Below, in pieces: positions 31,312 to 57,190 of a DNA stretch of 64,000 bases. Position numbers and translations under genes: made by a program. Source of the stretch: Lytechinus pictus (taxonomy: Eukaryota); contig NC_087251.1 in the NCBI RefSeq assembly GCF_037042905.1, forward strand, positions 20,152,001 to 20,216,000, written 5' to 3'. The notes beneath the pieces are model-generated. The model was not told where the DNA came from. It made no database searches and was given only the letters and a program-made list of their open reading frames with translations. Numbering within the stretch: the stretch's first letter is position 1; the number at the start of each line of letters is the position of its first letter.

Positions 31312-33966
31312 TCCCTAGTTTCTCAATTTTGTGAATGAAAGGAATGAGATTATGAAATAGAAACAAATTAATTATCAATAACAAGGGCCTGACATATTCA
31401 GAAAATCCTAAAGGACATATTCCAAGAGGACAAATAGAAGTTTCTCCTAACCAATATTTTTCAAAAGTTCGAAAGAAACAAATTATAAATAGCAAGGGAT
31501 TGAAATATTCCAAAGGGACATTTTGCAAAAGGACAAGTACAAGTATCTACTTGTTAATATTTTTCAAAAGTTTAGTACTCAAAAGTGCATCTCAAAAAAG
31601 AAACATGATTTCAGAGACAAATGGCAGCTAGGCATCAAACTCATCAAATATGTTTCGACTTCAATATGATACTCATGGTAAGAGTCCATTCTCTTCTTTG
31701 GTTTGAGATGAAAAACTTTGTTTACAGTTGATGCATCATAGATCACACACAAAAAATTATGCTGACTCTAGTACTACTAAAAAAATTGCATAGAAAATAA
31801 TGTGTGGATCTGTATTCATTCTTGTTTTGATTTTTGAAGAAAAAGCATACAAAGAACATTTTAAAAAATGACAATAAGCCATCTAGTTATAAATCAGGTG
31901 AACTTAATGTCGGTGTACACTGTAAAAAAAGATATGATAAATCATTTCTCTACACTGCAAAAACCCTGAGAATCCTCCTTTTCCTGGGATGTACACTGGT
32001 GCGTTATATTCCTTATCCAGTGGGAAATTAATGAATGGTGAATATTATTTTAAAAGTAAGCCACTGGGTAACAAGCAAGGAGTGAAAGAAAATCTAGGGC
32101 ACCTTGTCAAAAATGTATTAAAAAAAGGGAAATAACTATTCTTTGCCTTTGTGTTCTTCCAATGGCCTTTCAATAGAGCCTTTAAATTCCATTCTTCAGT
32201 TGTCAGGGCAGAATAATAAATGCCTCAAATGTACTATAAGGAGCTAAGCGCAGTGTCTCCTTCCAGTAGATGAAGGATATTTTGATCTCACCAACCAGAA
32301 AAGAGTTTCCCTTATGAACAGTGTGCAATTTATTTATTTTTTCTTTAAGCCCGGATCTATGGATTTTGACACCAAACAGAAAGGGGAAATAACACCATGG
32401 GCTTATATTTGAGCATTCTGAAGCAGCTTTCAAATTTGTCCTATTTTGATTTGTTGGGTACTATTTTTCCTTATTCGATATACATACTGGCAGGTTGGTA
32501 TGTCTAGCCTGAAAAAAGGAACATATATATTTAAAAACTCACTTAGAAACAGAGCAATAATGCTCTAGTTATATGGGACAGGCTACTGCAAGGTGATCGC
32601 ATCAAACAATGACTTTCATGCAAAATAAAAAATCCATAATTTCTTCATATTTTCCTAGATTTGATTAGCTTATGATTCTACACAACTGACCAAGACTCTT
32701 TGCTACATGTACATGTACTTCTTTCCAAAGAAAATTTCTTTATACCCTCTAAATTTCAAGTATACATACAAGATATCTCCAGAGTGGATTTGGTGAGAAT
32801 TGAGTACCCATCCTAACACTGAATCTATATTCAAAGTTTCAATTCTTAAAGATATGATTTCAAAAGCATAAAATTTATCTTAAATTATTAAAAACAAATC
32901 AGAACTGCAAAGAAATAAGAATCGTGATCAAATACACAGTTTGGCTGGTCACAGACCACAGACTATCTGGATTTATATTGAATCCCTGTAATTCAATACT
33001 GTAAAGTTTTGGAACAGAATAATTTTGGAAATAAAAAATGCAGACTTTACAGTAAAAACAAAAGAAAAAGAAAGTAACACACAGTTTTTGTATAGCACAT
33101 ATCATTACAACTATTTTTCCAGACGTAAGTAAACAATGGCAAACATGTTTGCAAAGTTTACATAGGGGATTTGAGGTTTACCTTTACACACATCCTAAGA
33201 ATGTACTTGTGCATGTAATATAGGTTCAATCCGTTCCCACTCAAAACAATATTTGACTGTTGACACAGCCACGCCTTCTTACTAGGGGTACATTTACTGC
33301 TCTATTTCAAAGCAAACATCCCCAACCTATTAGCAGGGGAGTAGTATAGAGATGTTTTAAATAATATTGCACAGAAACCCCCATCCCAACATCATGTCCA
33401 TACTTCTTTTTGAGCAATGTGTTTCTATTTCTTGAGTGAAAAGCTTGAATTTAATCTATAACTTATCCCTCAAAAATGCATACTTGTATTTTTGTCCGCA
33501 TTGTTTGAAGGTCTAGTAGTCTTTTTCAATCTGGCAAACTGTTTGTGATTTTCATTGTTCAACATGGACCCCATCTCCTTTTCTGTCTGTCTGTCTGTCT
33601 CTACTCTCTTTATTTTGTCTTCTCCGTCTTCCCGTCTCATTTCCTCTCTCCATCTATCTCTTCATTTCCACTGGTCTGTTTGATCTGTCTGTCTGGCTGC
33701 TCTTTTCATCTTTTGTTGAATTATTGATTTTTCTCCATTGAAATCTAACAGAACCAAACACAGACTGTACAGTCTACACCATATCCTTTAAAAGGTGAAG
33801 AGTAGTACAACGAATAAAACAAATCTACATAATTATCAAAGGAAATCTGTATGGTATCTGTACTATTATGCAAAGCAAAGAGGATATCTTATAATCAGTT
33901 TCAAATACACCACAATCAATGATATTAGTTTAGGAAGCTACCCGTCACCAAATACGTAAAGTATAT

Positions 33967-42588: not shown

Positions 42589-43540
42589 AACAAGTGGAAT
42601 GCCTCTGGCCGTCTCACCTGCATCACGCGATTCAATATAGCAGCAGTGCTGATTTTGAAAACTACTATAACTCGCACAAGATGTTCAGTGATACTTGGTT
42701 ACTCTTATTTCCACGTTTTATGAACTAGACCAATACACTTATAGAGATATGATGGCAATTCAACAAATACCCCCAACGTGGCCAAAGTTCTTTGACCTTA
42801 CATGACCTTTGACCTTGATCATGTGACCTGAAACTCGCACAGGATGTTCAGTGATACTTGATTACTATTATGTCCAAGTTTTATGAACTAGACCAACACA
42901 CTTTCAAATTTATGGCTGTAATTCAACAAATACCCCAATTTGGCCAAAGTTCATTGACCCTAAATGACCTTTGACCTTGATCATGTGACCTGAAACTTGC
43001 ACAGGATGTTTAGTAATACTTGATTACTATTATGTCCAAGTTTCATGAATCAGATCCATAAACTTTCAAAGTTATGATGGTAATTCAACAGATACCCCCA
43101 ATTTGGCCAAAGTTCATTGACCCTAAATGACCTTTGACCTTGGTCATGTGATGTGAAACTCATGCAGGATGTTCAGTGATACTTGATTAACCTTATGTAT
43201 AAGTTTCATGAACTAGGTCCATATATTTTCTAAGTTATGATGACATTTCAAAAACTTAACCTTAGGTTAAGATTTTGATGTTGATTCCCCCAACATGGTC
43301 TTAGTTCATTGACCCTAAATGACCCTTGACCTTGGTCATGTGACATGAAACTCAGGCAGGATGTTCAGTAATACTTGATTAACCTTATGGCCAAGTTTCA
43401 TGAACTAGGTCCATATACTTTCTAAGTTATGCTGTCATTTCAAAAACTTAACCTCAGGTTAAGATTTGGTGTTGACGCCGCCGCCGCCGTCGGAAAAGCG
43501 GCGCCTATAGTCTCACTCTGCTATGCAGGTGAGACAAAAA
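42589..43540 (-). mobile_element. Helentron-associated non-autonomous element (HINE / Tsp / pearl-like) with about 4.5 internal ~162-bp tandem repeats
   Basis: AACAAG at one end; subterminal IR GTCTCACCTGCAT...ATGCAGGTGAGAC; terminal hairpin gtctcactctgctatgcaggtgagac; (GCC)n tract; ends in an A run with no TSD. Confidence 0.8.
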
Positions 43541-44526: not shown

Positions 44527-44850
44527 TGGTACACCATGACATTTCCGTGGTACAACATCACATATCTGAGGTGTTGCAAGGGAAATCTATGGTACAAAAC
44601 AAATCATAGGTGGTACACTATCAATGGTGTACCACAGCGCATGTTAAGTGCAGTGAAGAAAATCAATATCACACCATGGCACATCAGTGGTACACTGTAA
44701 ATCTATTGTACATGGTATATCTTAGGTGTTGTGTAGAAAATAGATGGTATGAAATAAAATCATGAGCCCTACATTATAGAAAATCAATGTTACATCAAGG
44801 TGCATCTTCGGTTCAATGTAGAAAATCAGTGATACACTATGGCACAGCAG
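44527..44850. repeat. Degenerate intronic tandem repeat built on tggtacac(c/t)atg and gtagaaaatc motifs
   Basis: Recurrent tggtaca motifs; tatct(g/t)aggtgttg at about 44564 and 44718. Confidence 0.5.
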
Positions 44851-48112: not shown

Positions 48113-48773
48113 AACAAGTGGAACGCCTCTGGCAGTCTCGCCTGCATTACGCGATTTAATATAGCAGCAGTGCTAACTTTGAAAACTACTATAAAATAAT
48201 CATTCACAAAAACACCATTCATATAATGACATAATACCATGTTCATTGACCATAAATGACATTTGAACGGTGACTTAAGACTTGTCAACTACACCCATGT
48301 CCACATTTCATTCACTCTATCCATAAACTGTCAAAGTTATGATGGTAATTCAACAATTACCCTAACACGGCCAAAGTTCATTGACCTTAAATGACCATTG
48401 ACCATGGTCATGTAACCAAACTCGCACAGGATATTCAGTGGTACTTGATTAATCTTATGTCTAAGTTTCATGAACTAGATCCATAAATTTTCAAAGTTAT
48501 GATAGTAATTCAACAAATACCCCCAACTTGACCAAAGTTCATTGACCCTACATGACCTTTGACCTTGGTCATGTGACCTGAAACTCGAGCAGAATGTTCA
48601 GTAATACTTGATTAACCTTATGTCCAAGTTTCATGAACTAGGTCCATATACTTTCTAAGTTATGATGTCATTTCAAAAACTTAACCTTAGGTTAAGATTT
48701 GAGGTTGACGCCGCCGCCGCCGTCGGAAAAGCGGCGCCTATAGTCTCGCTCTGCTATGCAGGCGAGACAAAAA
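48113..48773 (-). mobile_element. Second HINE-like element of the same family, with fewer internal repeats
   Basis: Both ends nearly identical to 42589-43540 (aacaagtggaacgcctctggc...gccgccgtcggaaaagcggcgcctatagtctcgctctgctatgcaggcgagacaaaaa). Confidence 0.8.
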
Positions 48774-49104
48774 CAGATTAAAATTAGGATCTCAAAATTA
48801 GTTTGAATATAATCTAATGAAATTACCACCAAAGTGTTTATATATATCTGTGAATTTATAGTTCCTAACAATTTCAGAATTCTAAAATAATTTGAACGAT
48901 GTAGAGATTATATCAATGGGGAGGGGGGATAGGGGAGCTGTTTGCATGGATATCACAAAATTGAAAATGTTAAGTTTCTTAAATCTGTGCTTCTTTAATA
49001 AATTTTTGCCAAACCTTCGAAAATATATTTCTCTCTTTCTACTTTTGTAAAATCCAACATGATGTCTGGGTAGACTTCCCCACTGAGATTTAGTATCACC
49101 TTAC

Positions 49105-49209
49105 CTGTAGATAGCATTTGAGCAGAGTTGTGTCGATGATGAGACTCCTTTGTCTTCTTGAAGTTACTATCTTTGATCCCTCGCAGATAGTTGAAGGCGT
49201 GGCTGCAGT
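49105..49209 (-). CDS. VPS39: VPS39 exon (105 nt): TAATPSTICEGSKIVTSRRQRSLIIDTTLLKCYLQ
   Basis: Acceptor tacag, donor gtaagg; IIDTTLLKCYL begins the Vps39_1 domain. Confidence 0.93.
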
Positions 49210-49642
49210 CTGTATGTATACAAGTATGATTGAAAGAGTTGAATAGTAGGCTTAAATAAGACATGCAAGATTTCACACAACAAATCTGATTTCTATTAAG
49301 GTATAATCAGATAAATAAGTACATTATCCATATTTCCTAAATTCAAGGTCTCTTCCACAAAAAGAAAATACAACCTGAAATATACGTTCCTTTTTTATTA
49401 CTAAATTTATGATTGAGCTAAACTATTCAACTAATAGTAATCTTAAATAAAAACTTGTATCTCTGCAAACATATATTTCAAAGGATGTCAGGTTTCAGTC
49501 AATAAAATGTATTAAAGTTCCATACAACATTTCCCTTGAATTATTAAGAAATAAAATGAGACATTAGCTGATGCAAGAGCGATGGATTTGTCAGATAAGT
49601 ACATCAAGAGTGTGGCATCACAAATCTACACCTGCTGATTAC

Positions 49643-49821
49643 CTGTTGAGAGGATTCCTTGGCAAGGTCTTGTCTCTTCTGGGTAAGATACTCTACCAAG
49701 GCAGTCAGACCTTTCTCTAGTTCAGCTCCACCAAGCTCTGTAGGTGTGCTGGGGTACTGTAACACCTGTCTATACTCCTTGGGTAGAAGGTCTGGGAAGA
49801 GACCAATCACCTGCGCTGGAT
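49643..49821 (-). CDS. VPS39: VPS39 exon (179 nt): DPAQVIGLFPDLLPKEYRQVLQYPSTPTELGGAELEKGLTALVEYLTQKRQDLAKESSQQ
   Basis: Acceptor ttcttgatag, donor gtaatc; the only copy in the array that continues into GAELEK...YLTQKR. Confidence 0.93.
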
Positions 49822-51312
49822 CTATCAAGAACAAGATACAACTCAGTTATCACACTATTCTTCAGCCTAGTTTTACAGAGTCCTGTAGGTGTGCTGGGGT
49901 ACTGTAACACCTGTCTGTACTCTTTGGGTAGTAGGTCCGGGAAGAGACCAATCACCTGTGCTGGATCTATCAGGAACAAGATACAACTCAGTTATCACAC
50001 TATTTTTCAGCCTAGTTTTACAGAGTCCTGTAGGTGTGCTGGGGTACTGTAACACCTGTCTGTACTCTTTGGGTAGTAGGTCTGGAAAGAGACCAATCAC
50101 CTGTGCTGGATCTATCAAGAACAAGATACAACTCAGTTATCACACTATTTTTCAGCCTAGTTTTACAGAGTCCTGTAGGTGTGCTGGGGTACTGTAACAC
50201 CTGTCTGTACTCTTTGGGTAGTAGGTCTGGAAAGAGACCAATCACCTGTGCTGGATCTATCAAGAACAAGATACAACTCAGTTATCACACTATTTTTCAG
50301 CCTAGTTTTACAGAGTCCTGTATGTGTGCTGGGGTACTGTAACACCTGTCTGTACTCTTTGGGTAGTAGGTCTGGAAAGAGACCAATCACCTGTGCTGGA
50401 TCTATCAAGAACAAGATACAACTCAGTTATCACACTATTTTTCAGCCTAGTTTTACAGAGTCCTGTAGGTGTGCTGGGGTACTGTAACACCTGTCTGTAC
50501 TCTTTGGGTAGTAGGTCTGGAAAGAGACCAATTACTTGTGCTGGATCTATCAAGAACAAGATACAAGTAATTCAGTTATGTTTAACATAGTCCTGTAGGT
50601 GTGCTGGTGTACTGTAACACCTGCCTAGACTCCTTGGGTAGTAGGTCCGGGAAGAGACCAATCACCTATGTTGGATCTATCAAAACAAGCGACAAGTAAT
50701 TTAGTTTTACACAGGTCTGTTGATGGGCTGAAGTGCTGTAACACCTATCTAAACTCCATGGGTTACAGGTCTGGGAAGAGACCAATCACCTATGTGGGAT
50801 TTATCAAAAACAAGAGACAACACTTTTCTTCAGCCAAGATTTACAGAGTTCTGTAGGTGTGCTGGGGAACTGTAATACATGTCTTTACTACTTGGGTAGA
50901 AGGCTGGTTACAGACCAATCACCTGCACTGGATCTACCAAAACAGGTACCAGTAATTGATATCATTCTAGTAATACAAGGCATATGATTTAGAAGGAAGA
51001 AGATAATTTTGCTTCAGTCTTGTTTTACAGAGTTTTTGTAGGTGTACTACGGTACTGTAACACCTGTCTCATCCTTGGGTAGTAAATCTAGAAACAGACT
51101 GATCACCTGTGCTGGATCTATAAAAAAGACAAAAACACCAATCCTATCACACTAGTTGCATAGTGCAATTTCAAAGGAAAATATTCTTTTGATTTTAAGC
51201 CAAAACATCTTTCTTCACCTTATCCCCCCCCCCCCCCCCCCCCCCCGCTTGGTAGTTATGCTGGGACACACAAATTGTCAGAACTCCATGGGGCAAAGGT
51301 CTGAAAAAGACC
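49738..51312 (-). repeat. Tandem array of a duplicated VPS39 intron/exon junction: 145-bp unit, 5 near-identical copies plus about 5 degenerate ones
   Basis: The ctgtaggtgtgctgggg register (ctgtatg in the 50318 copy) recurs at 49738, 49883, 50028, 50173, 50318 and 50463, then more diverged at about 50593, 50718, 50851, 51037 and 51250. Confidence 0.95.
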
Positions 51313-51594
51313 TGTATTCTACCCAACAAGAGTGGAACATATCAAGATCACTCCACAATCAACAGCACTTATTTCATATTTTCAATTTACATTAAATTTT
51401 CATAGCTTTAGCTATATATCAATCATTTGACAAAACAAAACAGTTACACCATTAATCAAAGTGTTTGCAGTAATAACATATACAGAATGATTGGTTTGTA
51501 CTAATGGAACTAACAGGAATGATATCCATGCCATTACAATTTTTCTAAAACCTGTCAATCACTTCTTTACAAGATTACACAATGAGCTGCTTAC

Positions 51595-51724
51595 CTGTTC
51601 CTAGTTTGGCAAACATTTTCATAGACTCTTCAAAGCGGTGTTGCTGAAACAGCTCAAAGGCATATAGGTTCTGAATGTGCTGTATTCTCCTCTGTCGATC
51701 AGCCTCTACCTCATCTGTCATGTA
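51595..51724 (-). CDS. VPS39: VPS39 exon (130 nt): YMTDEVEADRQRRIQHIQNLYAFELFQQHRFEESMKMFAKLGT
   Basis: Acceptor ttcag, donor gtaagc; NLYAF and FAKLGT motifs. Confidence 0.95.
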
Positions 51725-55755: not shown

Positions 55756-57190
55756 AACAAGGCAAATGCCAAGCGTTGTCTCGCCTGCATATTGCAGTCA
55801 TGTAGAGACTGCATGTCAAATCTGAAGGGTGACATTTAAGAAACTTTGACAGCTTTTCTATTGTACCATTTATAAATGGTGCCAAGAACTATAGCTCATT
55901 AAATAAATAACAACAGTTTTTGAAGAATAAACAAGTAAAATACAAAATCTGGTTCAGGTATAGAGAGTACTGAGTTCTGAAGTAAAATGTTAGTGTTAAA
56001 AAGTATAAAATTATAAAGTTCATGTCACTAGAGGAACAAAGTAGTGTGAAAGTTCATTGACCTTTGACCTTAATCAAATTCAACTTACATTCGAACCTGA
56101 CCTGCACCTTCAAGAGATGGACCTCTGTTACGAGTTTGGCGATCCCACCTCGAAGCTATAGAAATGTATTGTGTGTACAAAATAGCACAGTGCCAGTCAT
56201 GGAAAGTTCATTGACCTTTGACCTTAATCAAATTCAACTCACATTTGAACTTGACCTGCACCTTCAAGAGATGGACCTCTTGTATGAATTTGGCAATCCT
56301 ACCTTGAAGATATAAAAAGTTATTATGTGTACAACACAGCACAGTGCCAGTCATGGAAAGTTCATTGACCTTTGACCTTAATCAAACTCAACTCACATTC
56401 GAACTTGACCTGCACCTTCAAAAGATGGACCTCTTGTATGAATTTGGCAATCCTACCTCGAAGATATAGAAAGTTATTGTGTGTACAGCACAGCACAGTG
56501 CCAGTCATGGAAAGTTCATTGACCTTTGACCTTATTCAAATTTGGCTCACATTTGAACTTGACCTGCACCTTTAAGAGATGGACCTCTGTTATGAATTTG
56601 GCGATCTCACCTCGAAGCTATAGAAAGTTATTGTGTGTACAACACAGCACAGTGCCAGTCATGGCAAGTTCATTGACCTTTGACCTTATTCACATTCGAC
56701 TAATATTCAAACTTGACCTGTGCCTTCAGGAGATGGACCTCTGGTATGAATTTGGCGATCCCAACTCGAAGCTGTAGAAAGTTATTGTGTGTACAACACA
56801 GCACAGTGCCAGTCATGGAAAGTTCATTGACCTTTTACCTTTGACCTTATTCACATTTCGACTCATATTCAAACTTGACCTGTGCCTTCAGGAGATGGAC
56901 CTCTGGTATGAATTTGGCGATCCCACCTCGAAGATATAGAAAGTTATTATGTGTACAACATAGCACAGTGCCAGTCATGGAAAGTTCATTGACCTTTGAC
57001 CTTTGACCTTATTCAAATTCGACTCATATTCGAACTTGACCTGTGCCTTCAGGAGATGGACCTCTGGTATGAATTTGGTGATCCCACCTCGAAGCTATAG
57101 AAAGTTATTGGGTGTACAACACAATTGTTGACGACGACGCCGGAAATAGTGATACCTATGTCTCGCTCCGCTACGCAGGCGAGACAAAAA
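55756..57190 (-). mobile_element. HINE-like element of a related family with about 7 internal 154-bp tandem repeats (56040-57122)
   Basis: aacaag...gtctcgcctgcat at one end and gtctcgctccgctacgcaggcgagacaaaaa at the other; (GAC)n tract; gaaagttcattgacctttgacctt recurs every 154 bp. Confidence 0.8.

Follow-up and report, generated by a model that had tools for sequence, protein, structure and literature searches.

An amphioxus-type mirage minisatellite at a sea urchin Vps39 exon and the silent differences among its copies

Results

Location and layout of the array

The window analysed here is a stretch of 64,000 nucleotides from Lytechinus pictus (contig NC_087251.1, positions 20,152,001 to 20,216,000). 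The host is the membrane-traffic gene Vps39/Vam6, encoded on the minus strand, with exons mapped by tblastn from 62752 down to 42130 of the window, and the array sits in one of its introns. The product of the copied exon (60 residues) was 88% identical to Vam6/Vps39 of Diadema antillarum, and the next named matches were other echinoderms. As shown in Table 1, the repeat unit consists of the splice acceptor and the first 84 nt of the 179-nt exon, and ten copies lie upstream of the real exon. Copies c1 to c5, whose exact span is 49883-50546, are spaced at a 145-nt period and are followed by c6 to c9 and then by the decayed c10. This array has a single locus in the 812-Mb assembly.

Table 1. Features of the Vps39 array (positions in the window)
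Feature	Position	Strand	Observation
Downstream Vps39 exon	49105..49209	-	Joint 49209/49643 with CT..AC ends in 4/4 runs
Functional Vps39/Vam6 exon, 179 nt, DPAQVIGLFP...ESSQQ	49643..49821	-	Diadema identity, tblastn map, one spliced contig per run (4 runs)
Spacer I0 including the authentic acceptor	49822..49882	-	1/61 sites unlike c2-c4 spacers; 5' part resembles exon continuation
Copy c1	49883..49966	-	5 silent differences; TTC CCG ... CTA common to c1 and c6
Copy c2	50028..50111	-	5 silent differences
Copy c3	50173..50256	-	Identical to c2
Copy c4	50318..50401	-	5 silent differences and CCT>CAT
Copy c5	50463..50546	-	7 silent differences, 2 of them probably one templated event
Perfect 10-bp inverted repeat across c5 acceptor	50530..50572		Arms 50530-50539 and 50563-50572, 23-nt loop
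Copy c6	50593..50676	-	4 silent and 4 replacement changes, one of them a stop; expressed X1 allele also has AGG
Copy c7	50717..50800	-	Acceptor AG gone; 5 silent, 11 replacement
Copy c8	50851..50933	-	2 silent and 7 replacement changes, one nucleotide deleted; codons 3 and 12 have the third base of today's exon
Copy c9	51036..51117	-	8 silent, 7 replacement, 2-nt deletion
Copy c10, most decayed	51252..51350	-	Local alignment score 47, reached by 0/1000 shuffles
Upstream Vps39 exon, end in phase 1	51596..51724	-	tblastn map

The acceptor AG was present in eight of the nine copies c1 to c9 and missing in c7, and the acceptors of c2 to c4 were identical to the authentic one. The inner units were homogenised (c2 equals c3, and the c2-c4 spacers are identical), while the exon and c6 to c10 stood apart. 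Among five spacers there were two variable sites in total. Judged by the identity of c2 and c3 and by these near-identical spacers, c1 to c5 are one recent expansion. A run of about 23 C was located at 51225-51247, between the c9 spacer and c10.

Silent excess in the young copies

A codon-by-codon comparison on the minus strand reproduced all nine changes that the initial annotation had listed for c1 to c5, eight silent and one replacement. GCG/GCA, CTT/CTA, AAG/AAA and TAT/TAC were found in all five copies, TTC/TTT in c2 to c5, CCA/CCG in c1, CAG/CAA and GTG/GTA in c5, and CCT/CAT in c4. The first 84 nt of these copies were 92-94% identical to the exon. Under neutral decay the silent share expected for the 84 nt was 0.24-0.33, for kappa from 1 to 6 and whether or not a CpG factor was included. 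Against this plain null, eight silent changes of nine had P = 1e-4 to 9e-4 (about 4e-4), which is not a chance result under that null.

The premise from which the excess had been judged, that a neutral copy differs mostly by replacements, omits the changes on the exon's own selected branch. The plain neutral null is the wrong null for a comparison of copy and exon; because selection on the exon branch passes mainly silent changes, a two-branch null is needed. With a selected exon branch and a neutral copy branch of equal time, the expected silent share was 0.433, and eight of nine then had P = 0.007, or 0.014 if the c5 pair counts once; for the four family-wide changes alone P was 0.035. Differences between functional alleles would contribute further silent-only changes. 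Retrocopy studies follow the same two-branch logic and use a threshold of omega < 0.5, since a neutral copy compared with a selected parent already gives omega < 1; there the criterion serves for entire retrogenes rather than for short junction repeats in introns (PMC3532220).

The nine changes represent fewer independent events: four are common to all young copies, and four silent states recur in older copies (GCA, TTT, CCG and CTA are also present in c6, c7 or c9), although recurrent transitions could account for some of these matches. Of about 20 silent sites, 4-5 differed between the young family and the exon, with zero family-wide replacements, a divergence as great as that of organism B (see below). 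In simulations the probability of at least four silent changes and no replacement was 0.02-0.055 at a silent diversity of 0.024-0.04, the diversity suggested by three same-species contigs, and at most 0.011 without allelic divergence. The Vps39 array is a tail case, for which one array would have to be singled out among many after the fact; this is plausible in view of the abundance of mirages in this genome.

Older copies, spacers and the inverted repeat of c5

Copies c6 to c10, which lay outside the comparison in the initial annotation, carried stops, indels and mostly replacements. Variants confined to c6 to c9 comprised 11 silent and 26 replacement changes, against a neutral expected silent share of 0.27-0.30, and young and old copies differed in their ratio of silent to replacement changes (Fisher P = 0.002). 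The exon states at the older copies alternated between two versions. Copy c8 had ten changes of its own, yet equalled today's exon at two sites where c1 to c7 differ (chance about 0.002), which suggests that two exon versions were sampled at different times. Copies c6 and c7 had 5' replacements in common. In a tree built from the 84-nt units none of the six inner branches was well supported, and it was not relied on.

The spacer that follows the copies matched the continuation of the exon in register, at 17 of 30 sites after c8 (P = 0.0005) and at 14-15 of 30 after c1, c2 and c5 (P = 0.007-0.015; for c1, 15 of 30 with P = 0.007). This likeness was absent after c9 and c10, and gapped alignments were all non-significant. 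A spacer that looks like decayed exon, beside fresh 84 nt (92-94% identity), suggests that the original duplication was old and longer and that its first 84 nt were later copied anew from the exon.

The changes CAA and GTA, private to c5, turned an imperfect inverted repeat across the acceptor into a perfect 10-bp one. Of 31,374 possible two-base changes only 4, among them the one in c5, would produce a perfect 10-bp inverted repeat at this place; the test was devised after the pattern had been seen. Since the intronic arm is like its counterparts in c6 and c8, the exonic arm is the one that changed. The pair is probably a single templated (template-switch) event. Quasi-palindrome template switching homogenises the arms of inverted repeats and yields multi-nucleotide changes that mimic selection (PMC8604942). 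The homogenisation of the c5 arm is alike; the urchin example is one probable case, whereas that paper concerns yeast coding DNA.

Spliced contigs and exon alleles

Assembled contigs of four (X1, X2, X5 and X19) of the 24 runs listed were compared with 48800-49882 of the window. None of the runs was recorded as RNA; X1, X2 and X5 were guessed to be RNA and the kind of X19 was unspecified; the spliced joint was present in all four. Three runs came from organism A, by inference the same species, and one from organism B, by inference a relative. One long contig per run joined 49209 to 49643 and spanned the whole exon (4/4 runs). Contig coverage left out 49836-49882 in every run and gives no evidence of absence there. 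Differences at piece ends were counted without positions (2, 2 and 4 in X1, X2 and X5, respectively), which places codons 1-10, including GCA, TTT and CCG, outside the readable part.

Over the 181 sites of the exon, the contigs of organism A had 3, 2 and 0 differences from the reference, and over 105 sites of the next exon they had none. By raw count the allelic differences thus amounted to 5 in 3 x 181 nt of the Vps39 exon, as against 0 in 3 x 105 nt of the following one, and four of the five could not be placed. Organism B differed from the reference at 8 of 181 and 5 of 105 sites; its eight listed differences were all silent, and, if all are silent, its 13 differences fall on about 69 silent sites. 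At codon 12, CTA (the copy state) was found in organism B mRNA and CTT in all three contigs of organism A. At codon 18, AGG (the c6 state) was found in X1, while AAA and TAC were absent from the contigs of all four runs. Of the three readable allele or outgroup differences in the duplicated part, two matched states of c1 to c6 (P = 0.044); against c1 to c9 P was 0.27. A metagenome search for orthologous DNA returned at least 595 candidate stretches; four loci had 63-64% identity and were of no use at that distance.

It had been proposed that the copies archive earlier functional alleles, exchanged with the exon, and that copy variants might segregate as exon alleles. The archive part finds partial support in CTA in organism B mRNA, AGG in an expressed allele, the two alternating exon states and fresh 84 nt beside a decayed spacer. 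AAA and TAC, found in 0/4 contigs, speak against it; among the copy variants sought as exon alleles, the c6 AGG was recovered in X1 and these two were not recovered in the four contigs. Exchange from copy to exon would rest on one site.

Splicing and coding capacity of the copies

The other proposal, that the copies are or were translated, is not supported. The 145-nt unit shifts the frame, and use of the c1 acceptor with the real donor would give a 324-nt exon with a stop. The sole strong donor motif (8/9 consensus), at nt 11, is out of frame for a cassette, and the in-frame GT motifs at nt 90 and 111 are weak (4-5/9 consensus matches). With 84 of 179 nt and no strong in-frame donor of their own, the copies differ from tandem duplicated (mutually exclusive or cassette) exons, which are complete, keep the frame and have their own donor. 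The neutral pattern of old-copy and single-copy variants is a further reason for which translated copies were rejected. The exon frame is open through the spacer. The donor-like motif at 49805-49813, 11 nt after the acceptor, matched 8/9 of the consensus in the real exon and in c1 to c4 and 7/9 in c5, through the templated change.

The authentic junction is used: one long contig per same-species run (3/3) had exon-type letters and departed from the reference at the acceptor. CTT, AAG and TAT were present in the full-length contig of 3/3 same-species runs, in a comparison in which contigs drop rare forms and the array lies outside the compared stretch. Minor isoforms that include copies could exist beside such contigs.

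Other mirage arrays in this genome

Other arrays were located via Pfam hits; 40 regions were taken, in a sample that was partly pre-selected. In the first batch, 18 of 77 exon hits had local duplicates, 12 were forwarded and 11 analysed, one having given no copy under the filter; the six dropped were intronic, simple-repeat or without defined boundary and included the RF-1 locus. In the second batch, 8 of 57 hits had duplicates and 5 were used, the other three having too little exon overlap. Mirages are frequent in this genome: 134 Pfam-hit exons, a partly pre-selected set, yielded 11 + 5 other arrays.

Across the 11 other arrays of the first batch, the ratio of silent to replacement changes was 14:7 for family-wide variants and 24:48 for single-copy variants (Fisher P = 0.011). 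In the seven arrays found by DNA self-comparison alone, it was 9:4 for family-wide, 5:13 for minor and 15:40 for single-copy variants (neutral share 0.26; Fisher P = 0.008), and arrays of one or two copies in this set gave 16:22 (two-branch expectation 0.38). When six edge bases were trimmed, the contrast between family-wide and single-copy variants fell to P = 0.06-0.08. The five loci of the second batch gave 29:46, a silent share of 0.39 against 0.396 expected. The HMM lists show four arrays with a bias to preserved protein (single-copy 9:8), which were counted apart. These cross-locus counts indicate that private changes are neutral and that shared changes carry the history of the exon.

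Three of the regions had features of their own. One old acceptor-side copy of a TBC-domain exon (L015, G000:C10:28658350-28658460) had 15 silent and 6 replacement changes at about 80% identity; its first 70 nt differed almost wholly at silent sites, and it may be a former alternative exon. In a kinesin gene (L031, G000:C6:819000-827500), an acceptor mirage of 8 copies was accompanied by a donor mirage of 18 copies, the latter with a higher-order repeat of six units. At G000:C6:27.0-27.9 Mb a gene with an RF-1 domain was present five times, near-identical and about 100-500 kb apart, as a segmental duplication or an assembly artefact.

Discussion

The Vps39 array is an amphioxus-type mirage minisatellite in a new, echinoderm host; the kind of repeat is known and its silent signature is expected. 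As in the amphioxus mirages (Adh3, BflGb6 and BflGb9), tandem units, ten of them here, lie across the intron-exon boundary of the host, most units keep the AG with normal splicing unaffected, and inner units are homogenised with the boundary units excluded (PMC3087553). The unit is 150-160 bp in BflGb6 and 145 in the urchin Vps39. Besides the echinoderm host, a difference is that the relevant passages of Ebner et al. 2010 do not discuss patterns of silent versus replacement changes (PMC3087553). A literature search, with most subscription papers outside its coverage, found no report of minisatellites at sea urchin exon-intron boundaries, and among the papers judged by title and the start of the abstract none was relevant to silent bias in junction duplicates.

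We consider it rather probable that the array is an untranslated mirage minisatellite in which the silent excess reflects changes on the exon branch and allelic history, followed by neutral decay of the copies. The tandem copies of the acceptor and exon start leave with the intron in the main transcript; a donor lies downstream of the last unit only, and exon definition may be the reason for their removal. New units would arise by unequal exchange beside the exon, their first 84 nt being taken from whichever exon allele was there. If copies sample exon alleles in this way, a comparison of copy and exon holds the silent-only changes of the exon branch together with differences between functional alleles. 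One captured unit would then have expanded to c1-c5, so that its few differences appear five times, a template switch in c5 would have added two silent changes, and after copying the units would decay neutrally. Against this explanation, the 5' replacements common to c6 and c7 are unexplained by simple proximal recopying. A deep allelic lineage could also exist at the Vps39 exon.

The excess may also have arisen without allele capture, which we regard as unlikely. Only GCG and CTT would then lie on the exon branch, the c5 pair would be templated, and AAA, TAC, TTT and CCG would be neutral copy mutations, silent by chance; attention would have fallen on them through the choice of the most striking array and the omission of c6 to c10. 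The absence of AAA and TAC from the four contigs and the frequency of mirages in the Pfam-hit exons (partly pre-selected) agree with this, and once exon-branch, shared and templated changes are removed, three of four changes are silent (P = 0.05-0.11). However, without allelic divergence the best-case probability of the family-wide pattern is 0.011, c8 matches today's exon at two sites unlike the younger copies, and the c6 AGG occurs in an expressed allele.

That same AGG in the X1 allele would also fit a two-way exchange, in which the array acts as a reservoir and gene conversion or contraction of the array carries variants back into the exon, where only silent ones survive selection; this we think improbable. 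The raw counts of allelic differences, five in the Vps39 exon and none in the next, and the two of three readable differences that match c1 to c6 states are in its favour. However, this match loses significance with c1 to c9 as the reference set, AGG is a single transition, common states give no direction, and most of the allelic differences could not be placed. A flow from copy to exon, which here concerns one site, is possible, as proposed for human CBS 844ins68. There, splicing removes the upstream copy of a duplicated intron/exon junction, and this copy was proposed to serve the functional exon as a template for gene conversion (Vyletal et al., PMC2630376). In the passages concerned, CBS 844ins68 has one extra 68-bp copy with a missense change, whereas the urchin has a ten-unit graded array (PMC2630376).

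Inclusion of the young copies, now or recently, as a translated alternative cassette under purifying selection is very improbable: the eight silent changes of nine, the c2-c4 acceptors equal to the authentic one, the frame open through the spacer and the weak in-frame GT motifs are compatible with it, but the frame shift and stop, the out-of-frame strong donor, the c4 replacement of a proline that is P in 20/25 homologues, the exon-type contigs and the neutral single-copy variants of other arrays argue against it.

A wider reading goes beyond the explanation by exon-branch and allelic history, and we hold it to be doubtful. Mirages would be time-ordered archives of exon alleles, with GCG-CTT and GCA-CTA haplotypes sampled alternately over >10% neutral divergence, and the array would feed silent variants back. 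If this were true, silent polymorphism would be raised at the many urchin exon ends flanked by mirages, which would also keep a record of extinct alleles, and the abundant urchin mirages would be dated samples of past exon alleles as well as a local source of silent polymorphism, of use in the study of deep allelic lineages in marine animals with high polymorphism. A silent excess in intronic exon copies is in any case expected without translation and is no evidence for hidden exons. The cross-locus counts provide a simple test, in which family-wide variants should be silent-rich and private variants neutral.

The Vps39 gene contained further intronic repeats at 42669-43475, 48258-48679 and 56048-57123, with periods of 163/192 bp and 154 bp and a short motif in common, which probably belong to a dispersed satellite family. 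Old short local direct repeats were located at 44562-44850, 31360-31572 and 1186-1343 of the window, and the first of these, intronic in appearance, lay just upstream of another Vps39 acceptor.
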